A stretch of DNA of 63,260 bases, filler included, from 8 parts of 8 records of this genome joined end to end with filler, not necessarily neighbours in it; one strand, 5' to 3'; counted from the whole stretch's first letter, positions 10,944 through 56,362 are shown. The notes: generated by a model not told the origin, from the letters alone. Numbers and translations: made by a program.

Positions 10944-11043
10944 NNNNNNNNNNNNNNNNNNNNNNNNNNNNNNNNNNNNNNNNNNNNTTAATTAATTAAN
11001 NNNNNNNNNNNNNNNNNNNNNNNNNNNNNNNNNNNNNNNNNNN
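10944..11043. other. Artificial contig spacer
   Basis: N44-TTAATTAATTAA-N44, giving stops in all six frames. Confidence 0.99.
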
Positions 11044-11068
11044 CCCCCCCCCCCCCCCACACACACAC
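11044..11068. repeat. Poly-C and (CA)n microsatellite at contig edge
   Basis: C-run followed by acacacacac. Confidence 0.85.
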
Positions 11069-14324: not shown

Positions 14325-16519
14325 TCATTTCAGTTGCAGCTTTGTGAGCAAGGAGTCAAGGTCCAATGCCGCCGCTTCCTCGTATGAAACGTTTGCCCGG
14401 TCACGGATTTCGGCCAGAGTGCTGTCCACCTTGAGTTCGCCATTTTCGAAAATGCACTGCAGACGATCTGTTGCAGGGTCACCAAGACCGTTTTGCATTG
14501 TCACGTAGCCATTGTCGATTGCACATGCTTCCTTGATGTACCTGACGTATGACGCATACATAGCACGCGAAAAGAGTGTTTTTACCATACTCAAGCCAGC
14601 AGCGTACGCGTAGGCACAACGAGGCGCTTCGCTGTTCCTACAAGCAGGGTCAACGTACGTGGCTGTATCGTTGTCAGCTGCTAACACAGCATCCACCTTT
14701 TCGCCTTGGGAGCCATCAAGCTTGTGGAGCGTGAGACGACCTTTTTTGGATTTTTTCATGGGTTGGTCAATTGGAGACTTGAATACCTCACGGTCTTGCA
14801 ATTCGCCGGTTTCGTCTGCGTAGGTGATGAAGCTACATTTGAAGGCAAACTTCTGCGTGTCGCTGACAAGTACAAAATGCGGGCACCACGTCAAAAAGTT
14901 GCGCATTACCGCATTCTCACTGGCCATACGAGTTGAGTACATGTAATACGATGCAAGCGCAAACAAACCGATTGTGCTTCTGAAGAAGGCCACCTCCACT
15001 TCCAAAGCCAATGTTACTGGCGGACCAGCCATTTTGTTTCAGGTACTCGAGAATCTCGACAAGGGTCTCAAATTGAATGCCGTCTCCTTGAATGATACGA
15101 ACATGATCATCCAGCACCTGTAAAGGTCATGCCGCAGAAAAAGCATCAAGAACACAACACAGGGTTCAAACCACAAATGTCACTGCATTTGGAACAGGTT
15201 GATTGACCAAGACGATCCACACCAATAAAAACGCGTGCTCGACAAACCCAGTATCCTTTGGAGTTTTTGCGCTTGCCAAACGTCTCACCAAGAATCTCCA
15301 AGATTTTAAGGTCAACAATCTTTGGCTCTCCTGAATCTGGCCGAACAATCAATTGTCCTGGGTTCGCTCCATCACCTTCGCGGTTGACAATCAAATCCTT
15401 CAGCTGACCCCACCTGCATAGCCAAGAACAACAACCCAGAACCATCCGATGTGAGAGTGAGGGGTCGTGCGCAGCCAAAGCTATGCAGGGCTACATGCTG
15501 AATCATGCCGCAACGACTCCTGCCCAGTGCCAACGAAAATGCCGCTTGACTAACATGGTGGAGCCACAGGCCGTGTAGATATCATAAGAATCACTGACAC
15601 AGGCAACCAAACCCTGGGGAAACTGCTTCAGCATGTTGCGGAATGCATCGAGTTCATTATCACGGCCCCAGGAGGTGATGGTCGAGTGTTCTGATGCTGG
15701 AATCGAATAACCTGCCACAGCCCCTGGCGACTCACCACCACCCCCCGCGTAAAAGTCACGGGCCAGCACCAACGCTGCAATCGTGTCAGTGCCGCGGAAG
15801 TTAACAAGGTGAGAGCAACCCCCGAGCGCAGCGGTCTCCACTGACGAAACACCCCGGAAACCAAAGTCCTGAAGCTTGAAGTTCTCGCCGTAAGTGCCGT
15901 CCGGCAACTTATCCGCGGTGTCGAGAAGGTAGCGCGTGATGATTTTCTTTTGTGCGCGCGACCCAGACGCGACGGTCATTGGGTACCACACTTGGACCAG
16001 CAACGTTTCGAGAAAGTTGGTGAGCCAGAAGCACTCCGGGTCCGTGTTCTCGACAGTCATCAGCACGTTCTTGTACGGGATCACTTCGCCCTCCAGCGGT
16101 GCGCAGATGCGAATCGGCAGGCGCCCCCCGTGCTTGTTCACAATGTGCATCCACTTGTCACGCGGGAATATCGAGCCGGGCCCAAAGTGAGCGCCGTAGA
16201 TCTTCTCGGCTTCGTCGATTTTAGCTTCCGTGACGACCACCCCGCACAAGTAACGCTTCAAAAAGTACTGCAGCCCAAAGTTCACCACGTGCAGGTGTTT
16301 GCCACCGCGGCTTTCCAGGTACGAGTAGATGGTCTTGGTACCAGGCGGGTACTGCGCCCAGTGGGTGACTTTGTACGAGTCCGTGAGCAGCAGCAGGTTG
16401 TTGAGCCCACTCGAGATCACGCTGCGCAGTTGAGACACTTCCGACTTGGCCGCTTCAATGGTTGTGATGTCGCTGGCATCAGCAGGCTTCCCTCCAAGCA
16501 CACCGACGGAGGCCCCCAT
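14325..16519 (-). CDS. NAMPT: Nicotinamide phosphoribosyltransferase, eukaryotic, multi-exon
   Basis: LLTDSYKVTH, LQDFGFRGVSS, SIPASEHSTITSWG, CVSDSYDI, IVRPDSGEP, RIIQGDGI, FGSGGGLLQK and RDTQKFAFKCS are spread over 5 exons separated by GT-AG introns. Confidence 0.93.
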
Positions 16520-16773: not shown

Positions 16774-16873
16774 NNNNNNNNNNNNNNNNNNNNNNNNNNN
16801 NNNNNNNNNNNNNNNNNTTAATTAATTAANNNNNNNNNNNNNNNNNNNNNNNNNNNNNNNNNNNNNNNNNNNN
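16774..16873. other. Artificial contig spacer
   Basis: N-TTAATTAATTAA-N. Confidence 0.99.
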
Positions 16874-16874
16874 T

Positions 16875-17675
16875 GATTATTACATGAACGAACCCTGGAC
16901 CCGCGATGGGCGCATCAGTGCCGATGTGGTTTCCGTCGCCCCGGATATTGCCGGGCTGATCAGCGAAGTTCATGTTCATGACAACCAGCAGGTCAAGGCG
17001 GGTGATCTTTTATTTGCGATTGATCCCGCACGCTATCAGGTGGCGGTCGATCAGGCTCATGCCAAACTTTCAAGTGCGCGCGCGGCGCGCGATCAGGCAG
17101 CGCGCGAAGTCAAACGCTATCAGGGGCTTAATTCCGACGTGGTGTCGCGCCAGAAAAAGGAACAGGTAGCAACCAGCCTTCAAACCACCCAAGCCGCTAT
17201 GGAGCTGGCACAGGCCGATCTTGATCTGGCCGAGCTTAATCTTGAACGGACCCGCGTTGTGGCATCGGTCGACGGGATTGTGACCAATTTTTCTGTACGT
17301 CCGGGTAATTATGTCGGGGCCGGGTCGGCGGTGGCGGCCCTTGTCGATAGCAGGTCATTTTATGTTGCCGGTTATTTCGAAGAAAACAAACTGCCGCGCA
17401 TTGCGATTAACGACAAGGTCGAAATCCGCTTGATGGGTGAAGACCGATCCCTGTATGGTCATGTGGTCAGCATTGCTGGCGGCATTCAAGATAGTGAACG
17501 ATCAGGAAGCTCTGCCGGTTTGGCCGTCGTCAAACCGACCTTTAGCTGGGTCCGTCTGGCCCAGCGTGTCCCGGTCCGGGTGGCCATAGATGACGTGCCA
17601 TCAGGTGTGCGTCTTGTTGCCGGGCGCAGTGCCAGTGTGACTATTCTACAAATGGACAAAACAGTCACATTTTAG
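16875..17675 (+). CDS. HlyD-family adaptor of AaeA/fusaric-acid efflux type, 5'-truncated
   Basis: YYMNEPWTRDGRI, SFYVAGYFEENKL and PTFSWVRLAQRVPVR. Confidence 0.88.
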   Translation, partial: DYYMNEPWTRDGRISADVVSVAPDIAGLISEVHVHDNQQVKAGDLLFAIDPARYQVAVDQAHAKLSSARAARDQAAREVKRYQGLNSDVVSRQKKEQVATSLQTTQAAMELAQADLDLAELNLERTRVVASVDGIVTNFSVRPGNYVGAGSAVAALVDSRSFYVAGYFEENKLPRIAINDKVEIRLMGEDRSLYGHVVSIAGGIQDSERSGSSAGLAVVKPTFSWVRLAQRVPVRVAIDDVPSGVRLVAGRSASVTILQMDKTVTF

Positions 17676-17693
17676 AAAAGTTCTGACCGTGTT

Positions 17694-18527
17694 TTACTGC
17701 CCAATCTCGCCAAGTAGCGATGGGGTGCCAAACTGGCGTAAATCAGCGTTTGAGCGTTCAAAATACAATGACCAGAAACTTTCCAGCGATTTGAGCGCAA
17801 CAGACGAACGGTATTTGCCATCGTTAAGGAAACCACCCCCTATGACATAGACCTTTGTGCGGTCCATATCTTCGAAGGACACCTTCGTTTCGAGTTTTTC
17901 CAACTCACGTGCCGCGTTTAGCTTTTCCAGTTTTCCGGCACCGTATAGTGACAAGAGATCCGAATTCTCCATCATATCTGAGATGATCAGCATGTATTTC
18001 TCGGGCGTGCCAGATTGGGAGATTACACTTTTTGTGACATTGGAAAGATTGGACAGGATTTCTGTTTTTGGAAGGTCAGTTGTCGCATTGGAGAAGGTAT
18101 GTAAAAGAGCCTTTCCGGTAAAGGTTCTAACTTGACTGTCCTGACTTTTTTGACAGGTATCGATTTGGCGCAATATCTTCTTTGAGATCGCGTAGCGGGT
18201 ATCGTCGGGCAGGCGGGCGTCAATAACGCCGCGCAGAATAATTTCAGTATAGTATCCCGCGGCATTTGCCGAAAATCCTATAACCTGAACGGAATCACCT
18301 GGCATGAGGAATTGGATAATCTTCTGATAGGATTCTTCCTGAAGCTTTGAATCCAGCGCCATGGTCTGATCAACAAGAACGTAAAGATCACGCGATAGAG
18401 CCGGGGGCGCAATATCCCCCAGCTTTACTGTGTCGTAGCAACTTCCTATTGTCGCCGGTGCGGCCTGCAACGAGGTTTGAGCGAAGCCCAGCAGAAATGC
18501 AAAAGCAGCAAAAGTGTGTTTGAACAT
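17694..18527 (-). CDS. Uncharacterised secreted protein with vWA-like alpha/beta motifs
   Basis: Sec signal peptide (…TSLQA|AP), strand-Asp motifs LYVLVDQT and MLIISDMMENS, KVYVIGGG. SD AAGGA. Confidence 0.78.
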   Translation of the reverse strand: MFKHTFAAFAFLLGFAQTSLQAAPATIGSCYDTVKLGDIAPPALSRDLYVLVDQTMALDSKLQEESYQKIIQFLMPGDSVQVIGFSANAAGYYTEIILRGVIDARLPDDTRYAISKKILRQIDTCQKSQDSQVRTFTGKALLHTFSNATTDLPKTEILSNLSNVTKSVISQSGTPEKYMLIISDMMENSDLLSLYGAGKLEKLNAARELEKLETKVSFEDMDRTKVYVIGGGFLNDGKYRSSVALKSLESFWSLYFERSNADLRQFGTPSLLGEIGQ

Positions 18528-18558
18528 TGTCGTTATTTCCTTGGATCACGGGGCTTGA

Positions 18559-20058
18559 TCATGATTCCCCCAGTTCCTTGCGGATACGCTCGCGCATTTC
18601 TTCTTCGGTTTCGGTCTTTTCTTCGCGGGCTTGTTTTTCGTTCAACAGTTCCTGACGGATACGTGCTTCCATTTCCTCACGGGTTTCGGGGCTTGGCTCA
18701 GAAACAGTCGGTGTGAGTACTTCTTTGGTTACGTGTACGGGCGACTGTTTACGTTTGTCCGCATTCTGGCGCGATATTTCAGCTTTGTTTTCGGATTGTT
18801 CGTGGTGATCGATGAATGTCCGATCAGCAGAACCCATCAAGACTTCGCGGTGTGTCTTATCCACGCCGTTCGCTGCGGCATTTGCCGTAAGCCTTACTTG
18901 CAAATTAGACAGATGCTTTTGTGCGACGCGAGCAATCGCATCCCGCTTGCGCTCATACCAGGCTTCATATGAGGTTCGACTTGGGAAATTGCGGATAATA
19001 CCGCGTGCAGTAGCACTTTCCTTCCCGGCAAAGCCGGTTTTGTAACCGATACCAATACCCATAATCTGAATGAGAATGAACAGGGTCGCAAGAATGGCAT
19101 AGGTCGTCAGGTTGGCGGCATCGCGCGCGCCTTCTTGTTCATTTTCAGCCTGTTGGTCAGCGTCTGCCTGAGGTTGGGTAAGCGCACTGGGAAGCCCGTC
19201 AGATTGAAGATCACCAAGTGAGAAAATAGAGTTGCTTGATGGGGCATCCGAACCGATTGTTTCAGCCGTCTTTTCCTGCTGATACGTTTCATACCGCACA
19301 TAAGTGGCACCTACTGCAACGCCAATAATTGCGATTGTCGCAATGATCGTCCAGATCGGGGCGCCCGGGGTTACATGGGCGTTGGTATCAACACGGTGAA
19401 GGATCTGCATATAGGCAGGATCGTTGTCATCAACCTGATCATTTTCAAGCGTGACCTTGTTTGTGCGGCCCAAAAGGTTCGCCCGGTCTTCGTCCGTATC
19501 ATGCATCCACCAAGTACGGACTTTTTTGATCAAGCCGCGCTTGTGAAGTTCCTGACCAGACTGATGCGTGAGGAAAACCAATACACAAGAAATCAGGAAG
19601 GCAATGAAGAAGGACCCTTGAACCTGCAACTGTTCACTGGCACCTGGAAGCGTGTATCCTGCAAGAACATAGGCAAAACCGAGTGCCTCGACGAAAACCA
19701 TAGCAATCAGAAGAATGCGCATAAAGACGCCGAGTTCGTTTCGTCCGAGTTCTTGAACTTTGCCAAGATAGCTTTTGGAACGATCATACATTTCCGGATC
19801 GGCGGCAATACGGCGTATGTCACCGGCAAAGTCGTCACAAAGAGTTCGTTCTGATGCAAACCAGCCATCTTTACGCACTGACATGTCTTTTGCCAGTCGA
19901 CGCGTTTTGCCAATAATCGGCAAACTATACATCATGCTTTTGAAAAACAGTTTTACCTCGTCCCACCATGTGATGACGAGAATAACGAATATTGCCGTTA
20001 GTACGGCAGCCCCGATAATGGCGCGATAGGCCAGCAAGAATGCGTAAAGTTCATCCAT
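18559..20058 (-). CDS. Uncharacterised multi-pass membrane protein with charged helical C-terminal tail
   Basis: About five hydrophobic segments and an E/R/K-rich tail with the duplicated motif EEMEARIRQEL / EEMRERIRKEL. Starts 3 nt after the OmpA gene stop. Confidence 0.82.
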   Translation of the reverse strand: MDELYAFLLAYRAIIGAAVLTAIFVILVITWWDEVKLFFKSMMYSLPIIGKTRRLAKDMSVRKDGWFASERTLCDDFAGDIRRIAADPEMYDRSKSYLGKVQELGRNELGVFMRILLIAMVFVEALGFAYVLAGYTLPGASEQLQVQGSFFIAFLISCVLVFLTHQSGQELHKRGLIKKVRTWWMHDTDEDRANLLGRTNKVTLENDQVDDNDPAYMQILHRVDTNAHVTPGAPIWTIIATIAIIGVAVGATYVRYETYQQEKTAETIGSDAPSSNSIFSLGDLQSDGLPSALTQPQADADQQAENEQEGARDAANLTTYAILATLFILIQIMGIGIGYKTGFAGKESATARGIIRNFPSRTSYEAWYERKRDAIARVAQKHLSNLQVRLTANAAANGVDKTHREVLMGSADRTFIDHHEQSENKAEISRQNADKRKQSPVHVTKEVLTPTVSEPSPETREEMEARIRQELLNEKQAREEKTETEEEMRERIRKELGES

Positions 20059-20061
20059 GGA

Positions 20062-21618
20062 TTACTGTTCCGTACTTTTAGCAAGTTTCAGGTTCATCCC
20101 GTTGGCAAAAACCTGACTGTTCTTGTCGTAGTAAATTCGGGATTCTGCGGTTTTGTTTTTGGCGCTTCCCTTGGGGAAGAAGACATCGACGCATCTTACA
20201 GGCCAGACATTTTCATCAAGAAATACCCGATAAATCACACCGTTCTGGCCGGCATAGGATCGCGCAGACCCTGTGGTGTGAAGTGCAGGGGTTTCGTCGC
20301 CTTTTTGGTAGTTATCAAAGACATAGAAATCGGGTTGTTTGTCGACCAGACCGCTATCTTTAAGAACGGCAACATTGGTCAACCCAACAAGGTGACCATT
20401 CACATTGTCATGCCAGGATGTCGAATAAAGTCCTGATACATAGTCCGAAGTGCGCCGGAGTGGTTTGTCATCATCAAGTGACATAACTGCGCCAACTGGG
20501 CGATAGGTGTCATTGATGCAGGTTGTCCCTAACATGGGGTCATCATTGGAAGCCTGCGCATCGGAAATAGGCCAAAGAGACGCCATCAGACTTTTGCCCT
20601 CTTCTTTCTTTTCGATTTGCTCAGCAAGGTTTTGGTCATACTCCGCAATGGATTGGCCGCCGAAATCGATAGAAGTTCCTGATTTTAGCGCTTTGGGCGG
20701 AGGAGCAATATCCTTTGTGGCAACCTGAACTTTATCTGAAGGTTTGGGAGAGGTTTGAGCTTTCGGTGGTGCCGGGGGCGTTTCAGGTATTTCCTGAGAT
20801 GCCGCAACGCGGGCAGGCAAAAGCGGATCGCTTTCTACGAAACTGTCATAGGCGATGATACCGTCTTCAGTTTCAAGTTCGACAACTTCAACGCGCCGGT
20901 TTGTCGCCCGGCCTTCTGGTGTTTGGTTGGTTGCTATTGGTCGGTCAGCACCGGCACCTTTGTAATAAAGGTCTGATACGGGGATGCCTGAGTTCGAAAA
21001 GATTTTGGCAACCTCACGCGCGCGTTGTTCAGAAAGTTTGCGGTTGAAGGCATCCGGGCCGGTTGCATCTGTATGCCCGACAATGAGAACTTTGCGGTTT
21101 TTATCGGCATATGTTTTTGCCAGTTCCTGCAAGTCTTGAGCTGCAGATGGTGTTGGTTGTGAGTCGCCGGTTTCAAACATTGCAGTATTTGATACCGTTA
21201 CGGCGATACCCTGTTCACCCTCTTTTTGCGAGGTGTCATCCGGGTTAACCCAGCTTCCAGACGCCGGGGCTGTAATAGCCTGAACGTTAAGATCGGTTTC
21301 TTTCATGCGTTGCTGAACAGCCGCAAGTTCCTTGCATCTGCTTTGCAGATAAGATTGTAGACCTTTGCCTGCCAGGCCACCGGCAGCACCTCCGGCAACG
21401 GTCGCAAGGCCTCTATTGTCGCCGCCAAGCAGAAGGCCAAGCCCGATGCCAATCACCGCCCCGCCTATCACATAGGCGGCTTCGTTATATTCGCATTCGC
21501 CGTTCGCACCGGGTGTAGTGCTTAGATAATTAGCGCTACTGCCATTGGTTACGCAGCCACTTAGCAAACTGGTTGCGCATAAAGAAGCAACCAGTGCCTT
21601 TGCAGGCTTGAATTTCAT
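20062..21618 (-). CDS. OmpA-family lipoprotein (glycine zipper, OmpA_C peptidoglycan-binding domain, extra C-terminal domain)
   Basis: Lipobox LLSGC, GGAVIGIGLG…GGAAGGLAG zipper, VGHTDATG…NRKLSEQRA…GRATNRRVE, then a Pro-rich linker and an unassigned C-terminal region. Start at MKFKPAK. Confidence 0.88.
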   Translation of the reverse strand: MKFKPAKALVASLCATSLLSGCVTNGSSANYLSTTPGANGECEYNEAAYVIGGAVIGIGLGLLLGGDNRGLATVAGGAAGGLAGKGLQSYLQSRCKELAAVQQRMKETDLNVQAITAPASGSWVNPDDTSQKEGEQGIAVTVSNTAMFETGDSQPTPSAAQDLQELAKTYADKNRKVLIVGHTDATGPDAFNRKLSEQRAREVAKIFSNSGIPVSDLYYKGAGADRPIATNQTPEGRATNRRVEVVELETEDGIIAYDSFVESDPLLPARVAASQEIPETPPAPPKAQTSPKPSDKVQVATKDIAPPPKALKSGTSIDFGGQSIAEYDQNLAEQIEKKEEGKSLMASLWPISDAQASNDDPMLGTTCINDTYRPVGAVMSLDDDKPLRRTSDYVSGLYSTSWHDNVNGHLVGLTNVAVLKDSGLVDKQPDFYVFDNYQKGDETPALHTTGSARSYAGQNGVIYRVFLDENVWPVRCVDVFFPKGSAKNKTAESRIYYDKNSQVFANGMNLKLAKSTEQ

Positions 21619-21835
21619 GAAAACCCCAAATTCAATCAAAATGTGTATTAGTCCCCACAAATACTATTAACGTTACTGGCGCTCAGTCAGCAAGCATTGT
21701 TTGGATGTTTATGAGAGATTATGTTTTGGCGTGCCGCAGTGCAAAAAGTGGCTTGCAGTGCATGGCAAGTTTGGGTAATTTTCGTAAAAATTAAAGATAA
21801 ATATTGTACGAATATTATCAAACGGGAGATTCCTG

Positions 21836-22230
21836 ATGGCTGCTGCCCCGCGTCCGCGCCGTTCTGTTTTGTATATGCCGGGATCGAACGCCCGCGCGCT
21901 GGAAAAGGGCAGGAGCCTTCCGGCGGATGGACTTATTCTGGATCTGGAAGATGCAGTTGCACCCGATGCCAAGGATAGTGCGCGCGATCAGATTGTCAGT
22001 GCCCTTGCCGAAGGGGGTTATGGCAAACGCGAAATTCAGATCAGAACCAATGGCCTGAATACGCCGTGGGGATATGCCGACATTGTTGCTGCGGCCAAAA
22101 CGTCTGCCGATGCCATCTTGCTGCCAAAGGTCGAAAGTGCCGATACCGTCCGCCAAGTGGCCGCGATCATGGAGGCCGAAAGTGCCCATGATGGCATGAC
22201 CATCTGGTGCATGATGGAAACCCCGCTTGC
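21836..22230 (+). CDS. CitE/HpcH-family CoA ester lyase (malyl-CoA lyase/thioesterase-like), 3'-truncated
   Basis: RPRRSVLYMPGSNARALEK, ILDLEDAVAP, ILLPKVES and WCMMETP. Confidence 0.88.
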
Positions 22231-22330
22231 NNNNNNNNNNNNNNNNNNNNNNNNNNNNNNNNNNNNNNNNNNNNTTAATTAATTAANNNNNNNNNNNNNN
22301 NNNNNNNNNNNNNNNNNNNNNNNNNNNNNN
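22231..22330. other. Artificial contig spacer
   Basis: N-TTAATTAATTAA-N. Confidence 0.99.
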
Positions 22331-22562: not shown

Positions 22563-23579
22563 ATGACCACGCTTCGCAGCTTTGCCGCCAGCGCCTGCCT
22601 TTGCCTTGCGTTCCTGCCAGCCTCGATTGTGCAAAGCACTGCCGAGCCGCGCGTCGTCACCTCGATCAAGCCGGTTCACTCGCTGGTGGCGTCTGTCATG
22701 GAAGGCGTTGGCATGCCGGATCTGATTGTCAGCGGTGCTGCCTCGCCGCACGCCTATGCGCTCAAGCCCAGCCAGGCGCTGGCGTTGGAAAAAGCGGATC
22801 TGATTTTCTGGATCGGCCACGAGCTCGAGAGCTTTCTGGAAAAACCCATCGAGACAATCGGGGCGAATGCCCGTGCGGTGGAACTGATCGACAGCGACGG
22901 CTTGATCCAGCTGCCGTTTCGCGAAGGCGGCCCCTTTGAGGCTCACATGCACGATGAGCATGAAGACCATGCGGACGGCGCCGATCATGATCACAAAGAG
23001 GGCGAAGAGCATGCAGAAGCTGATGGTGACGCCCAAGACGACCACCAAGACCATGATGAGGGCTTCGACGCCCACCTGTGGCTTGATCCGCTCAATGCCA
23101 AGGTCTTTGTCAGGGCTATCGGCGAAGCACTGTCAGCAACTGACCCGGCCAATGCATCGACCTACGCCGCCAATGTTGCCCGCACCAACGAGAAGCTCGA
23201 CGCCTTGATCGACGAGGTCAACGCCACCCTCGCCCCGGTTCACGGCAAGCAGTTCATCGTGTTTCATGATGCCTACCAGTATTTCGAAAAGCGCTTCGAC
23301 ATGGAGGCAGCGGGGTCGATTACCGTTAATCCAGAGGTGCGTCCGAGCGCCGAAAGAGTTGCCGCGATCCGAGACAAGATGCGTGAACTTGGTGCGGCCT
23401 GCGCGTTTTCGGAACCACAGTTCGACAGCCAGCTGATTGACGTCGCGATTGAAGGCACTTCGGCGCGGACTGCAGTTCTTGATCCCCTGGGGGCAACACT
23501 TGATGACGGGCCGGAGCTGTATTTCGATCTGATCCGCACCCTCGCCACATCAATGCACGACTGCCTCCAGAACGGCTAA
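22563..23579 (+). CDS. znuA: Zinc ABC transporter substrate-binding protein
   Basis: VVTSIKPVHSLV, ASPHAYALKPS, His/acidic loop, DAHLWLDP and VFHDAYQYFE. Confidence 0.95.
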   Translation: MTTLRSFAASACLCLAFLPASIVQSTAEPRVVTSIKPVHSLVASVMEGVGMPDLIVSGAASPHAYALKPSQALALEKADLIFWIGHELESFLEKPIETIGANARAVELIDSDGLIQLPFREGGPFEAHMHDEHEDHADGADHDHKEGEEHAEADGDAQDDHQDHDEGFDAHLWLDPLNAKVFVRAIGEALSATDPANASTYAANVARTNEKLDALIDEVNATLAPVHGKQFIVFHDAYQYFEKRFDMEAAGSITVNPEVRPSAERVAAIRDKMRELGAACAFSEPQFDSQLIDVAIEGTSARTAVLDPLGATLDDGPELYFDLIRTLATSMHDCLQNG

Positions 23580-23770: not shown

Positions 23771-24709
23771 ATGAGCGGACTGCTTGCCCTTCTCGATGAC
23801 GTCGCCGCACTGACCAAGCTGGCAGCAGCTCAACTGGACGATGTCACCGCGCAAGCGGCCAAAGTCGGCGTCAAGACAGCCGGCATCCTGATTGACGACA
23901 CCGCGGTCACGCCAAAATACGTAACCGGTCTTCCGGCAGCGCGTGAATTGCCCATCGTCTGGCAGATCGCGCGCGGCTCGCTGTTCAACAAGCTCGTCAT
24001 CCTGCTGCCGATTGCGATGCTGCTCAACGTGTTCGCACCCTGGCTGTTGTCACCGCTGCTGATGATCGGCGGCGGGTATTTGTGTTTCGAAGGCGCCGAG
24101 AAAATCTGGCATTTCTTTCATCCCGAACCGGTTCCGGTCTACGAAGACAATCCGATCGATCATGCCCATCTGGAAAAACAGAGGGTCAGCGGCGCGATCA
24201 AGACCGACTTCATCCTGTCGGCCGAGATCATGACGATTGCGCTGTCCTCGATTGAATCCGGCACGGTGTGGATGGAAGCCATGGTGCTGGCCGTGGTGGC
24301 CGTGGGCATCACCGCACTTGTCTACGGCAGCGTCGCCATTCTGGTCAAAGCCGACGATGTCGGCTTGAAGATGGCGCAGGGCGCCTATTTCGACGCGACG
24401 CGCAGCCTTGGCCGCGCCATTGTGCGCGGCATGCCCACCTTCATGGAGACCGTTGCCAGCATCGGTACTGCGGCCATGCTCTGGGTTGGCGGCTCAATCA
24501 TCATCCACGGTCTGGAAGGCTTCGGCATTTCGTTCTTCGGCCATCTGGTGGCAGATTCGTCAGCCGCGGTTCGCGAAGCCGTTGCTGTCGCCTCGGGCTT
24601 CCTCGGCTGGGCGACCGAAGCCCTGATCAGCGGCATTTTCGGCCTTGCTGTCGGTCTGGTTCTTCTGGCAATCATCAGCCTGGGCAAGCGTGTGTTCAAG
24701 CGCGGCTGA
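23771..24709 (+). CDS. DUF808 (YedI-like) inner membrane protein
   Basis: MSGLLALLDDVA, IDDTAVTPKYV, RELPIVWQIARGS and GAIKTDFILSAEIM. Confidence 0.9.
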   Translation: MSGLLALLDDVAALTKLAAAQLDDVTAQAAKVGVKTAGILIDDTAVTPKYVTGLPAARELPIVWQIARGSLFNKLVILLPIAMLLNVFAPWLLSPLLMIGGGYLCFEGAEKIWHFFHPEPVPVYEDNPIDHAHLEKQRVSGAIKTDFILSAEIMTIALSSIESGTVWMEAMVLAVVAVGITALVYGSVAILVKADDVGLKMAQGAYFDATRSLGRAIVRGMPTFMETVASIGTAAMLWVGGSIIIHGLEGFGISFFGHLVADSSAAVREAVAVASGFLGWATEALISGIFGLAVGLVLLAIISLGKRVFKRG

Positions 24710-24762: not shown

Positions 24763-27700
24763 TCATTCGCCGGGTGAAAGCTCCGGCTGTCCACCCTTGC
24801 GATTGGACATATCACCCGCTTCGCGCAACTCGACGTCGAGGCGGCGTTCCTCCTCGGCCGATGGCGTGGCGAAGCGGGCCAGCAGCAGATAGGCCACCGG
24901 GGTCAGGAACAAAGTGGCGATCATCGCCAATCCAAGCCCGCCGACGATCACCCAGCCAAGTGCAATGCGGGCTTCAGCGCCCGCTCCGAAGGCCACCAGC
25001 AAGGGCACCGAGCCGAGCACAGTGGAAATCATCGTCATCATCACAGGCCTGAGGCGGATGTTGGAAGCCTCTTCGATTGCCGCGCGGATATCCATGCCCT
25101 GATTACGCAACTGGTTGGCGAATTCGACAATCAGGATACCATTCTTGGCCATGACGCCGACGAGCAGCACAAGGCCGATCTGGCTATAGACGTTGAGCGA
25201 GCCACCGGTCATGGCCATGGCGAAGACCGCGCAAGCCAGGCCGAGCGGCACTGTCGAGATGATGATGAAGGCGCTGACAAAGCTTTCAAACTGCGCTGAA
25301 AGCACCAGCAGAACGACAATGATTGCGATGCCGAAGGTAATCAGCATATCATTGGAGGACTGATCCAGCGTGGCGGCTTCGGCAAGCGGAATGATCCGCA
25401 CACCAGCCGGTAGCAGTGGTTCGGCAATGCTGACGGCTTCGGACCAGGCATCCCCGAGTGCAAAAGCCGGGGTCAGGCCTGCGGTGATCGAGACCGAGCG
25501 CATCTGACTTTCGCGGCGCAGGTCGGGTGCCACCGCCTTTTCGGTCAGGGTGGCAATGGTCGACATCGGGATGATACGGCCATCACCGGCCTTGAGATAG
25601 ATCGATTCCAGATCCGTGGGATCGTTGATCGGGTTGTTGGTCGACAGCAGCTTGACCGGATAGGCGCGATCCTCGATGAAGACCTGCGCCACTTCCCTGC
25701 CGTCCAGCAACGCCTGCAAGGCTTCGGCCAGGCCGTCGATATTGACCCCGAGATCGGAGGCGCGTGCGCGATCGATCTGGACGGAAATCTGCGGCTGGGT
25801 GGTTTCATAGGAAAGCTGGATCTGGCGGAAGCGCGGATCCTGCTCGAGCTTCTCGACCATCTGCCGGCCAACCTCCGCCAGTTCGCCGTAATTGTTGCCG
25901 ACAAAAGCGAATTGAAGCCCATTGCCAGCACCCCGGATGCCCAGGCTGTTGGGCTGGATGGCAAAGGCGCGCAGGCCCGGAACCGTGGCAATGGCGCGGT
26001 TGAGTTCGGCGACGATATCGGCCTGCGAGCGCTCGCGTTCACCCCACGGCGCAAGCGTCAGCACCATGAAGCCGTTGTTGGACGAGCCGCCGGTACCGGC
26101 GATGGCGAAGATGTTCCGGACTTCACCGCTGTCGCGAAGCGGAGTCACCAGCCGCTCGATTTCGGTCATGCGGGACCGGGTGTAATCGAGACTTACACCT
26201 TGCGGGGCGGAGATCCGGACGAGTGCAACCGCCCGGTCTTCCGGCGGGGTGAGTTCCTGCGGGATGGTGGGCAGAAGAGCCAGCGCCGAGCCGGCGGTCA
26301 GGAGCGCGATGACGATCACCACCAGCGGCGCATCCAGCGCGCGGCGCAACCATTTTGCGTAGAGGCCGGACAGCGACGTGCCGAACCTTACAAACCCGCT
26401 CTGTTTGGCGGACGCCTTGGACATATCACGACGCTTGATCAGCCGGGACGCCAGCATCGGGCACAGTGTCAGCGCGACCACGCTGGAGATCATCACCGTG
26501 AAAGCCAGCACAAAGCCGAATTCCGTAAACAGGCCACCCGCCTGCCCCGGCAGGAACGAGATGGGGATGAAGACCGCTGCAAGCGTCGCGGTGGTGGTGA
26601 TGACGGCGAAGAACACCTCGCGCGTGCCGATCACAGCGGCGGCGCGAACGCCCATGCCTTCGTTGCGTTTGCGCACGATGTTTTCGAGCACCACGATCGC
26701 GTCGTCCACGACCATGCCGGTGGCGAGCACCAGCGCCAGCAGCGTCAGGATGTTGACCGAGAAACCGGCAAGCCAGATCGCCGCGAATGCTCCGATCAGC
26801 GACACCGGCAACGTGACTGCCGGAATGATGGTTGCTCGCCAGTCGCGCAGGAACAGGAAGATAATGGCGATGACGATGAGCACGGCCAGGACAAGCGTGT
26901 TGCGAACTTCATCGATTGCACCGCTGATGAAGGTCGCGTCATCACTGGTAACCCGAATGTCGACACCTTCGGGCAGGATGGCCTGAATGGCCTCGGTGGC
27001 TCCGCGCACGCCCTGCGAAATCTCAAGCGTATTGGATGCGGATTGCCGAATAATGCCCATGCCGATGCCGGTGCGGCCATTGGCGCGCAGCACGGAATCG
27101 CCCGGGTCGGCGCCAAGTGTGACGTTGGCAACATCGCGGAACCGGACCCGGTCGTTGATGTAAAGATCCTCAAAGCCTTCGGGCGTTGTCACGTCAGCGG
27201 TGGCGCGCACCACAATGTCGGATGTCTGCGCGGTCAGGGATCCGGCGGGCACATCAAGCGCTACGTTGCTCAGCGCGCTGCGCAGATCCGCCAGTGTCAG
27301 CCCGAAGGCCGCAAGTCGCGTCTGGTCGACGTCGACACGGAAAATCTTCTCGCGGTCGCCATAGACATTGACGTCGGCGACGCCGGGGACGGCGGCAAGA
27401 CGGTCGACCACCAGATCCTCGACCAGAATGGTCATGTCCTGGACATTGTAGCGGTCAGACGTCACGGCCAGACGCATCACCGGATCGGAATTGGCGTCGG
27501 CCTTGACGATGCGCGGATCATCGGCGCCATCGGGCATGTTGTTGGTGACGCGACCAAGCGCATCACGTACGTCGGAGGCTGCAACATTGAGATCGGTGCT
27601 GTCGGAGAACTCAACCGTCACACGGCTGCGGCCGAGCGTGGATGTCGACGACATGGAGGCAACGCCGGCAACCCGTGCCACGGCCCCTTCGACGATGGCA

Positions 27701-27951
27701 GTCAGTTCGCGGTCGACAGTTTCCGGCGAGGCTCCGCTGAAAGCGGTGGTGACGGTGATCACCGGACGGTCGACATCAGGCAGCTCGCGAATTTCGGCTC
27801 CATAAAGACCGGCAAGGCCAGCCACAACGATGAGCAAACTTATAACGGTCGCCAGCACGGGCCGGCGAACCATCAGCGCGGTGCCGCCACCTGTTTCGGC
27901 GTCATTGCCCGGCATGTTTTCGCTCTCGACGCCGTTTTGGTCCGCGCTCAT
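24763..27951 (-). CDS. RND efflux transporter permease subunit (AcrB family)
   Basis: 1062 aa with GMVVDDAIVVLENI, KNGILIVEFA and RLRPVMMT. Confidence 0.96.
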   Translation of the reverse strand: MSADQNGVESENMPGNDAETGGGTALMVRRPVLATVISLLIVVAGLAGLYGAEIRELPDVDRPVITVTTAFSGASPETVDRELTAIVEGAVARVAGVASMSSTSTLGRSRVTVEFSDSTDLNVAASDVRDALGRVTNNMPDGADDPRIVKADANSDPVMRLAVTSDRYNVQDMTILVEDLVVDRLAAVPGVADVNVYGDREKIFRVDVDQTRLAAFGLTLADLRSALSNVALDVPAGSLTAQTSDIVVRATADVTTPEGFEDLYINDRVRFRDVANVTLGADPGDSVLRANGRTGIGMGIIRQSASNTLEISQGVRGATEAIQAILPEGVDIRVTSDDATFISGAIDEVRNTLVLAVLIVIAIIFLFLRDWRATIIPAVTLPVSLIGAFAAIWLAGFSVNILTLLALVLATGMVVDDAIVVLENIVRKRNEGMGVRAAAVIGTREVFFAVITTTATLAAVFIPISFLPGQAGGLFTEFGFVLAFTVMISSVVALTLCPMLASRLIKRRDMSKASAKQSGFVRFGTSLSGLYAKWLRRALDAPLVVIVIALLTAGSALALLPTIPQELTPPEDRAVALVRISAPQGVSLDYTRSRMTEIERLVTPLRDSGEVRNIFAIAGTGGSSNNGFMVLTLAPWGERERSQADIVAELNRAIATVPGLRAFAIQPNSLGIRGAGNGLQFAFVGNNYGELAEVGRQMVEKLEQDPRFRQIQLSYETTQPQISVQIDRARASDLGVNIDGLAEALQALLDGREVAQVFIEDRAYPVKLLSTNNPINDPTDLESIYLKAGDGRIIPMSTIATLTEKAVAPDLRRESQMRSVSITAGLTPAFALGDAWSEAVSIAEPLLPAGVRIIPLAEAATLDQSSNDMLITFGIAIIVVLLVLSAQFESFVSAFIIISTVPLGLACAVFAMAMTGGSLNVYSQIGLVLLVGVMAKNGILIVEFANQLRNQGMDIRAAIEEASNIRLRPVMMTMISTVLGSVPLLVAFGAGAEARIALGWVIVGGLGLAMIATLFLTPVAYLLLARFATPSAEEERRLDVELREAGDMSNRKGGQPELSPGE

Positions 27952-34313: not shown

Positions 34314-34413
34314 NNNNNNNNNNNNNNNNNNNNNNNNNNNNNNNNNNNNNNNNNNNNTTAATTAATTAANNNNNNNNNNNNNNNNNNNNNNNNNNNNNNN
34401 NNNNNNNNNNNNN
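34314..34413. other. Artificial contig spacer
   Basis: N-TTAATTAATTAA-N. Confidence 0.99.
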
Positions 34414-42526: not shown

Positions 42527-42626
42527 NNNNNNNNNNNNNNNNNNNNNNNNNNNNNNNNNNNNNNNNNNNNTTAATTAATTAANNNNNNNNNNNNNNNNNN
42601 NNNNNNNNNNNNNNNNNNNNNNNNNN
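42527..42626. other. Artificial contig spacer
   Basis: N-TTAATTAATTAA-N. Confidence 0.99.
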
Positions 42627-48170: not shown

Positions 48171-48270
48171 NNNNNNNNNNNNNNNNNNNNNNNNNNNNNN
48201 NNNNNNNNNNNNNNTTAATTAATTAANNNNNNNNNNNNNNNNNNNNNNNNNNNNNNNNNNNNNNNNNNNN
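48171..48270. other. Artificial contig spacer
   Basis: N-TTAATTAATTAA-N. Confidence 0.99.
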
Positions 48271-56262: not shown

Positions 56263-56362
56263 NNNNNNNNNNNNNNNNNNNNNNNNNNNNNNNNNNNNNN
56301 NNNNNNTTAATTAATTAANNNNNNNNNNNNNNNNNNNNNNNNNNNNNNNNNNNNNNNNNNNN
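56263..56362. other. Artificial contig spacer
   Basis: N-TTAATTAATTAA-N. Confidence 0.99.

Follow-up and report, generated by a model that had tools for sequence, protein, structure and literature searches.

To our knowledge, Gram-negative bacteria join the inner membrane to the cell wall and the outer membrane by only a handful of systems, among them Tol-Pal, Ton, the flagellar stators, the Lpp/OmpA tethers and YfiBNR. In MotB, TolR, ExbD and ZorB, an N-terminal single transmembrane (TM) helix, whose conserved aspartate plugs a pentamer of A subunits, is followed by a periplasmic domain that is often OmpA-like. In YfiBNR, an OmpA-like lipoprotein of the outer membrane is reported to sequester a periplasmic protein and thereby to release an inner-membrane enzyme (PMC4887326, PMC4655355). 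A 2025 report proposes that membrane-tethered von Willebrand A (vWA) proteins encoded beside tolQ(R)-like genes act as force transducers, and describes these proteins as anchored by a TM helix, one kind having an SHLS motif and the other a pore helix with an aspartate (PMC12204202). Here we analyse a 63,260-base stretch of DNA (the window), made of eight contigs joined end to end, and within it a cassette of three adjacent genes, g1, g2 and g3, at 17694–21618 on the minus strand. The three genes probably encode an undescribed complex that crosses the cell envelope.

In the direction of transcription, the cassette consists of g1 (20062–21618; 518 residues), g2 (18559–20058; 499 residues) and g3 (17694–18527; 277 residues), the coordinates of g1 and g3 including their stop codons; all features within these genes lie on the same minus strand. 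The open reading frames (ORFs) bear out the layout given in a first-pass annotation of this DNA, with three co-oriented genes separated by 3 nucleotides between g1 and g2 (20059–20061) and by 31 nucleotides between g2 and g3 (18528–18558). That annotation had also suggested an envelope-spanning assembly, and the predicted locations of the three products (a lipoprotein at the outer membrane, an exported protein in the periplasm and a polytopic protein in the inner membrane) fit such an arrangement. We consider it very likely that the trio is a real three-part cell-envelope module of this kind.

Linkage across genomes carries most of the argument. Two conserved g2 peptides placed 143 relatives in one-genome-per-species contigs, from which we kept the best 80 loci. 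In all 75 of these loci with downstream DNA, g3 lies directly 3′ of g2 on the same strand; the remaining 5 loci reach the contig end at or just after g2. Outside the Sulfurovaceae, g1 adjoins the g2–g3 pair in 59 of 61 loci, the other two starting at g2: it lies 5′ of g2 in 56 loci (54 with its OmpA-like and C-terminal parts in one ORF and 2, from Allohahella, in a short form) and after g3 in 3 Photobacterium loci. The genes are also closely spaced, at −4, −1 or 0 nucleotides between g2 and g3 in 41 of 63 loci and at 0–50 nucleotides between g1 and g2 in 48 of 49 loci, which is typical of co-translated partners. Since g2 and g3 are always together and usually translationally coupled, they form the core of the cassette, with g1 as the usual third part. 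All-against-all clustering of the ORFs flanking the 80 loci revealed no fourth conserved gene. The next commonest flank cluster, a GGDEF/EAL signalling protein judging by the one member scanned, occurs in 15 of the 80 loci, an enrichment that by a rough estimate could be explained by how common such genes are in these genomes.

The trio is conserved as a unit across Alpha-, Beta- and Gammaproteobacteria, Campylobacterota and one metagenome-assembled genome (MAG) of Myxococcota, so that the co-occurrence check proposed with the first-pass annotation came out in its favour. Hosts include Shewanella, Marinobacter, Halomonadaceae, Methylobacillus, Oxalobacteraceae, Arcobacter, Campylobacter, Sulfurovum and, on megaplasmids, Pantoea. 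Within Thalassospiraceae, g2 is present in 8 of 37 species genomes, one of these having only a fragment, where its contig stops, and the cassette is thus accessory, not core. In 42 of 63 loci its G+C content is below that of the flanks; the mean difference is −0.018, and in some hosts, such as Campylobacter showae (0.387 versus 0.486 in the flanks), the gap is large. Nonetheless, the G+C content of the cassette follows that of the host overall, from 0.27 to 0.64. We found g2 on 20 plasmid records, of which 12 are Pantoea megaplasmids and 15 are typed as non-mobilisable; on a mobilisable Aliarcobacter cibarius plasmid the trio sits among insertion sequence (IS) elements. The RefSeq names of the Pantoea and Aliarcobacter plasmid trios read 'OmpA family protein', then 'hypothetical' or 'zinc ribbon domain-containing protein', then 'hypothetical'. 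Horizontal acquisition, as suggested in the first-pass annotation, agrees with the lowered G+C content, the patchy presence in Thalassospiraceae, the plasmid carriage and the flanks that differ from locus to locus; the trio spreads as one unit.

A tree of 79 g2 sequences, built by a quick maximum-likelihood search with arbitrary rooting and several long branches, recovers families as monophyletic, which suggests long vertical residence. At depth it appears to be at odds with taxonomy: Alphaproteobacteria are split between two clades far from each other, two Ferrovibrio species stand apart, and Campylobacterota are nested among Pseudomonadota. In the same tree, a bin labelled Candidatus Izemoplasmatales (L028) has a g2 whose sister is the g2 of a Sulfuricurvum bin, on short branches and with 100% support. 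As one would hardly expect a cassette encoding an outer-membrane lipoprotein in a lineage that has no cell wall, this contig was probably assigned to the wrong bin.

The product of g1 is predicted from its sequence to be an outer-membrane-type lipoprotein with a cell-wall-binding domain. A signal peptide with an LSGC lipobox (residues 1–22; 21553–21618) ends in Cys22, which is nearly invariant in the alignment, and is followed by a glycine-zipper segment (approximately residues 47–85; 21364–21480) with a hydrophobic, glycine-rich peak at residues 47–65. Glycine-zipper models from Pfam match 30 of the 51 g1 family members, the window's own g1 giving no match at E ≤ 0.01. Next comes an OmpA-like peptidoglycan-binding domain (residues 147–241; 20896–21180), for which PF00691 scores 71.8 bits against a gathering cut-off of 27.2 and which is matched in 49 of the 51 members. 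The closest solved relatives by sequence are YfiB (E = 4e-30), then PA0833 and YiaD, all of them over the OmpA part only. The best NCBIfam models all score under their cut-offs: YiaD_Gzip_OmpA (NF053611, 124.3 bits, cut-off 175), PA1041 (NF053612, 100.1 bits, cut-off 250) and YfiB (NF053585, 86.4 bits, cut-off 128).

The remainder of g1 is of a different nature. A proline-rich linker of variable length (approximately residues 262–310; 20689–20835), gapped and rich in proline, alanine and lysine in the alignment, leads into a C-terminal domain (residues 311–518; 20065–20688) with invariant C367, C476 and D478. Some 270 residues at the C-terminal end of g1 have no family: the domain has no Pfam family across the 51 members, matches to Protein Data Bank (PDB) sequences end at the OmpA domain, and a comparison with the named clusters of the ESM Atlas gave no usable match. 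In the two Allohahella loci, a stand-alone C-terminal domain (217–218 residues, without OmpA) stands in g1's place; therefore, what is specific to the cassette is the C-terminal domain, the OmpA half being a module for anchoring. All that the first-pass annotation had read in this protein, namely a lipoprotein with a glycine zipper, an OmpA domain and a long unassigned C-terminal region, was recovered.

As had been proposed, g2 is a membrane protein with five hydrophobic helices (residues 13–31, 115–133, 146–164, 233–251 and 320–338) and a charged tail, of 161 residues. Lysine plus arginine counts in its loops (16, 9 and 30 inside versus 0 and 3 outside) follow the positive-inside rule, and the predicted topology places the N terminus outside and the C terminus inside. 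It has no match in Pfam (E ≤ 0.01), NCBIfam or PADLOC. A search of 5.8 billion proteins returned 279 relatives; among the 120 listed, those with names are called 'hypothetical' save for two stray labels. A profile of residues 1–400 run against 1.84 billion representatives retrieved 472 clusters at E ≤ 1e-3, 418 of them at E ≤ 1e-10, and the family thus looks compact at the sequence level, with no tail of distant relatives leading towards a larger superfamily. The ESM Atlas returned unnamed clusters only, and a PDB sequence search with the g2 profile gave nothing under E = 0.1. An AlphaFold model of g2 is confident (predicted local distance difference test score (pLDDT) 87.7, predicted template-modelling score (pTM) 0.75), and despite this it found no match among the solved structures of the PDB. 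We conclude that g2 represents a new protein family, for which no solved structural relative was found.

Across 102 sequences, the invariant residues of g2 include E124 (in the middle of TM2), S141, T164, H165, G168, D210, R222, R255, Q331 (in the middle of TM5), G334, G338 and a GFAGKES stretch. Several of these fall in a core formed by TM2, a PGASE turn and TM3 (residues 111–170; 19549–19728), which contains the invariant E124, S141, T164, H165 and G168 together with the nearly invariant E142 and E170. In the model, TM4 and TM5 are prolonged into a long helical hairpin, which the charge counts also place in the periplasm (residues 252–319; 19102–19305). This hairpin is acidic, with a variable tip of low model confidence; P290 is present in 98% of sequences, and an acidic residue stands at position 301 in 75% and at position 307 in 79%. 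The bulk of g2 and its best-conserved residues would lie in the membrane and the cytoplasm, only the PGASE turn and the acidic hairpin facing the periplasm.

The far end of the charged tail of g2 (residues 440–499; 18562–18741) contains two EEMxxRIRxEL-like repeats. Zinc-ribbon domains (PF13240, PF12773) are found in 15 of the 120 listed g2 relatives (for example, P0053 and P0079) and in a further one at L082:5989-7596. In two such relatives that we aligned, the ribbons stand in place of the charged C-terminal tail, for which reason the cytoplasmic end of g2 appears to be a swappable module; the same replacement fits a cytoplasmic location of the C terminus.

The first-pass annotation had described g3 as an exported vWA-like protein with motifs resembling a degenerate metal-ion-dependent adhesion site (MIDAS); export and fold are borne out. 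A Sec-type signal peptide (residues 1–22, ending SLQA/AP; 18462–18527) is present at the N termini of all 55 aligned members, that is, in the window's g3 and all 54 homologues. The protein has no sequence family in Pfam, NCBIfam or PADLOC; the Pfam model VWA_CoxE weakly matches 2 of the 55 members (best E = 5e-4), no Pfam VWA model matches the window's g3, and a PDB sequence search with the g3 profile gave nothing under E = 0.1. The fold emerges from the AlphaFold model (pLDDT 88.3), in which strands and helices follow one another as in a vWA domain over residues 41–277 (17697–18407). A Foldseek search with this model retrieved integrin I domains, ITIH1 and complement C2a with probability 1.0 and E values from 3.6e-6, at modest TM-scores of 0.33–0.39, and on these grounds g3 is predicted to be a vWA-fold protein.

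Invariant residues of g3 across the 55 sequences are C30, D53, T55, F85, L119, C125, S183, D184, E187, S189, F251 and W252. A complete MIDAS metal site has the motif DxSxS … T … D; g3 keeps part of it, D53-x-T55 and D184 being fixed in all 55 sequences, so that 'degenerate' is a fair description. We also considered whether g3 could be a lipoprotein and rejected this, as the conserved N-terminal cysteine lies after a cleavable A-x-A-type site and is paired with the invariant C125. One metagenome contig encodes a 550-residue protein (P0272) with two g3-like vWA copies in tandem, each about 32–34% identical to g3; this was the only longer form that a search for such forms turned up, and it hints at two g3 copies per complex.

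How might these parts work together? In the mechanism that we favour, g3, probably as a dimer, would bind g2 at its periplasmic hairpin and g1 at its C-terminal domain. The metal sites of vWA domains are usually completed by an acidic side chain; for g3, either partner could supply it, g2 from its hairpin or g1 from its C-terminal domain, in which the invariant D478, close to C476, is a candidate. The resulting chain would run from the inner membrane through g3 to g1 and on to the cell wall and outer membrane, with g1 held to the wall by its OmpA domain and to the outer membrane by its lipid anchor together with the glycine zipper, and with the proline-rich linker of about 50 residues giving the C-terminal domain its reach. 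The invariant cysteine pairs of g3 (C30/C125) and of the g1 C-terminal domain (C367 and C476) fit an oxidising periplasm. If the envelope changed in geometry or integrity, the chain would form or come apart, and g2 would pass this on to its cytoplasmic side, made up of conserved domains and the variable tail. In its logic this scheme would resemble the YfiB–YfiR–YfiN relay, built with unrelated middle and inner parts. We hold this specific tether or sensor mechanism to be possible and rather doubtful, at a level of confidence well below that for the three-part module itself.

Several observations weigh against the tether or sensor reading. First, 19 loci, from Sulfurovaceae or a closely related bin, contain g2 and g3 without g1, and a profile of the g1 C-terminal domain found no match in any of the five g1-less Sulfurovaceae genomes searched, which are MAGs and may be incomplete; the link to the cell wall and outer membrane therefore appears dispensable in one lineage. 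Second, g2 has no recognisable output domain, and a 'sensor' built on it therefore has no defined read-out. Third, the most conserved residues of g2 are polar and lie in TM helices or at their ends (E124, Q331, H165 and R255), a pattern less expected of a passive relay than of a channel, a transporter or an enzyme, and column statistics show the periplasmic hairpin, the proposed docking site, to be the least conserved part of the protein. Fourth, the third position of the first metal motif of g3, after D53-x-T55, varies across the 55 sequences. Finally, we found no g2–g3 or g2–g1 fusion among the g2 relatives listed (the longest of 150 being 624 residues).

The same polar residues raise the alternative of an ion-coupled envelope machine driven by the proton motive force, in which g2 would conduct protons along a path of conserved polar residues, move its hairpin and act via g3 on the wall-anchored g1, as a functional analogue of MotAB, TolQR-Pal or ExbBD-TonB made from unrelated proteins. 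Besides the mid-membrane carboxylate E124 in TM2 and Q331 in TM5, g2 has invariant or nearly invariant polar residues towards both faces of the membrane (S141, E142, R255 and T319 outside; T164, H165 and E170 inside); its partner g1 bears an OmpA-type wall anchor, the tandem form of g3 hints at two copies per complex, and force transduction is the role proposed for membrane-tethered vWA proteins beside tolQ-like genes in the 2025 report (PMC12204202). Against it, g2 shows no homology to the A subunits of 5:2 motors: beyond the lack of any Pfam match, a six-frame search of the T. lucentensis genome with PF01618 (MotA_ExbB) found 6 genes, none at the g2 position; alignment of the g2 profile with 16 Thalassospiraceae MotA, TolQ and ExbB proteins by hhalign gave a probability of 0.5% and E = 0.11; and no MotA, ExbB or TolQ chain was among the best 50 rows of the structural search. 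On these grounds, g2 does not appear to be related to MotA, TolQ or ZorA. Nor is there a single-TM partner with a plug aspartate, g1 being a lipoprotein and g3 having a cleavable signal peptide. An ion-coupled machine is on balance unlikely, and its particular version as a new trans-envelope machine, with a five-TM g2 carrying a buried invariant glutamate, a dimeric soluble vWA adaptor and a wall- and outer-membrane-attached lipoprotein, is a little less likely still; if true, the stator principle would have arisen independently in this cassette.

Another proposal, already present in the first-pass annotation, is an anti-phage or abortive-infection system in which g1 and g3 would sense attack at the envelope and g2 would be a membrane-damaging or signalling effector. 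The patchy distribution in Thalassospiraceae, the lowered G+C content, the carriage on plasmids (including the mobilisable one from Aliarcobacter) and the disagreement of the g2 tree with taxonomy at depth count in favour of such a system, and a few single loci have suggestive neighbours. In a Terasakiella MAG (L008; 2071–3327 and 8525–10481), the cassette lies between a C5 cytosine methylase gene and a SIR2/ThsA-like gene with a ParA-like ATPase gene; the Myxococcota MAG locus adjoins genes for a caspase-domain protein and an IS21 IstB, the Phaeospirillum locus an integrase and a relaxase gene, and the Sulfuricurvum locus a MazF toxin gene. The wider context lends the proposal little support. 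The 2023 version of PADLOC-DB, which covers the systems listed by that date, was run on 131 flanking proteins from 36 loci and gave clearly defence-type matches at 1 locus, that of Terasakiella, which is the only clearly defence-like setting among them; other flank matches were look-alikes of FtsH, PrmA, MutY, IstB and the like. Defence islands are thus not where the cassette is regularly found. Pfam assigned 92 flanking proteins from 35 loci mostly to housekeeping or metabolic functions. Within the cassette, g2 and g3 match no PADLOC family at E ≤ 0.1, and g1 matches ZorB models through residues 141–248, the OmpA domain, only. The cassette has no match in 50,697 phage records, and the monophyly of families in the g2 tree also speaks against a defence role. 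We regard such a role as quite improbable.

Alternatively, g2 could be a membrane enzyme or a transporter for an envelope component or a metal ion, with g3 as a periplasmic partner that binds the substrate or metal and g1 localising the assembly to the wall. The conserved glutamate, histidine, aspartate, arginine and glutamine residues in and near the membrane helices and in the cytoplasmic loops of g2 look like a putative active or binding site, and the metal sites of vWA domains in general bind divalent cations. The lack of any g2 family or solved relative leaves this proposal without a named activity to attach to, and we rank it marginally below a defence role. The last alternative, three unrelated genes that are neighbours by chance in this strain, is barely credible, as the synteny counts contradict it: the three genes keep their order and tight spacing in at least three phyla, with every other neighbour changing.

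The cassette lies entirely within one contig of the window (16874–22230; 5,357 base pairs, G+C 0.504), which contains five genes. On the plus strand, an AaeA/HlyD-like fragment (16884–17675; G+C 0.558) is cut by the contig start and a CitE/HpcH-like fragment (21836–22230; G+C 0.578) by the contig end. The greater AT-richness claimed for the trio was confirmed, at G+C contents of 0.503 (g1), 0.497 (g2) and 0.472 (g3) against those of the two flanking fragments, as was the AT-richness of the divergent intergenic region (21619–21835; G+C 0.378), which holds the presumed g1 promoter. The ATG start of g1 at 21618 is preceded by an invariant GGGG in the six Thalassospira upstream regions compared. 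Farther 5′ of g1, at approximately 21731–21769 on the minus strand, lies a conserved element made of an inverted repeat, CTTGCcatgcacTGCAAG, followed by CCACTTTTTGCACTGCGGCA; it is kept 5′ of g1 in 4 of 6 Thalassospira loci, a scan flags it as terminator-like, and it may serve as an attenuator or bind a regulator. Rfam gave nothing at E ≤ 0.1 on the cassette contig.

The nearest named relative is the Thalassospira lucentensis Mv1 chromosome (L001/G001), at 97% DNA identity over window positions 17693–22230 and 99% protein identity for g2; an exact look-up of the three proteins found no identical copy in the collection searched. In that chromosome, the third-position G+C content of the trio is 0.455–0.49, versus 0.54–0.61 in most neighbours. 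Synteny with Mv1 (window 16874–17693 versus L001:8366 onward) stops exactly at the g3 stop codon, beyond which the window has the AaeA/HlyD-like gene and Mv1 a gene of the beta-lactamase family. We considered that the absence of the AaeA-like flank from Mv1 might mean a chimeric contig; this is unlikely, because Thalassospira mesophila (L005) also has an HlyD-family gene on the g3 side.

The eight contigs of the window are joined by N44-TTAATTAATTAA-N44 linkers at 10944–11043, 16774–16873, 22231–22330, 34314–34413, 42527–42626, 48171–48270 and 56263–56362. Their G+C contents range from 0.50 to 0.63, and for this reason they may not all come from one organism. The contig at 11044–16773 carries on its minus strand (14325–16519) a nicotinamide phosphoribosyltransferase gene, with NAMPT_N and NAPRTase domains at 15503–16519; the gene seems to run on in other frames (15146–15478 and 14325–15032), in pieces that have no Pfam match, and looks like either a gene with introns, hence possibly on a eukaryotic contig, or one with frameshifts. 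The contig that follows the cassette contig (window 22563–27951; G+C approximately 0.60) is unrelated to the cassette and encodes ZnuA (22563–23579) and a DUF808 protein (23771–24709), both confirmed by Pfam, and a 1,062-residue ORF (24763–27951) that by the look of its sequence is an AcrB-type efflux pump.

No described system matches the cassette, in line with the first reading of the sequence, which could assign it no name; a full-text literature search, with subscription journals and supplements outside its scope, found no description of the trio. Our use of 'new' rests on these database and full-text searches. In that sense, the inner-membrane part is of no known family and the outer part carries a new domain on a known wall anchor, and, whether it proves to be a sensor, a motor or a defence system, this compact, mobile cassette of at least three phyla would add a new class of component to envelope biology.

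Each of its nearest counterparts shares one aspect of the cassette. Over its first 245 residues, g1 is laid out like YiaD and PA1041, with lipobox, glycine zipper and OmpA domain in the same order; however, the scores lie under the curated cut-offs, and g1 is about twice as long owing to its linker and C-terminal domain. With the proposed vWA force transducers (PMC12204202), the cassette shares a periplasmic vWA domain in a putative trans-envelope system encoded with an inner-membrane partner, but the signal peptide of g3 is cleavable and its hydrophobic stretch contains no acidic residue. Further, no tolQ-like neighbour was found among the 92 Pfam-scanned flanking proteins or the conserved flank clusters. 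The stators MotAB, TolQR-Pal, ExbBD and ZorAB likewise pair an inner-membrane protein with an OmpA-type peptidoglycan-binding protein, and g2 has a conserved membrane-embedded carboxylate. By contrast, g1 is a lipoprotein with an LSGC motif and no TM segment with a plug aspartate, and only its OmpA domain matches the ZorB and MotB models; the cassette also lacks the ZorC, ZorD and ZorE genes of Zorya. The comparison with MotAB, Tol-Pal and ZorAB drawn in the first-pass annotation thus finds no homology behind it.

The closest parallel in overall plan is YfiBNR (TpbB) of Pseudomonas aeruginosa, in which the genes for an OmpA/Pal-like outer lipoprotein, a soluble protein of the periplasm and an inner-membrane protein with several passes likewise lie together, and the OmpA domain of g1 is nearer to YfiB than to any other solved chain. 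The components themselves differ. The YfiB equivalog has about 160 residues versus the 518 of g1, which scores under the YfiB cut-off and carries in addition a glycine zipper and the C-terminal extension of about 270 residues; g3 has a predicted vWA fold and is not YfiR, the periplasmic repressor; and g2 has five TM helices without a GGDEF or a periplasmic PAS-like domain, whereas YfiN is a diguanylate cyclase. The gene order also differs, being yfiR–yfiN–yfiB in YfiBNR. We therefore read the likeness to YfiBNR as one of architecture only: the cassette would stand beside that system as an analogue, not within it as a member.

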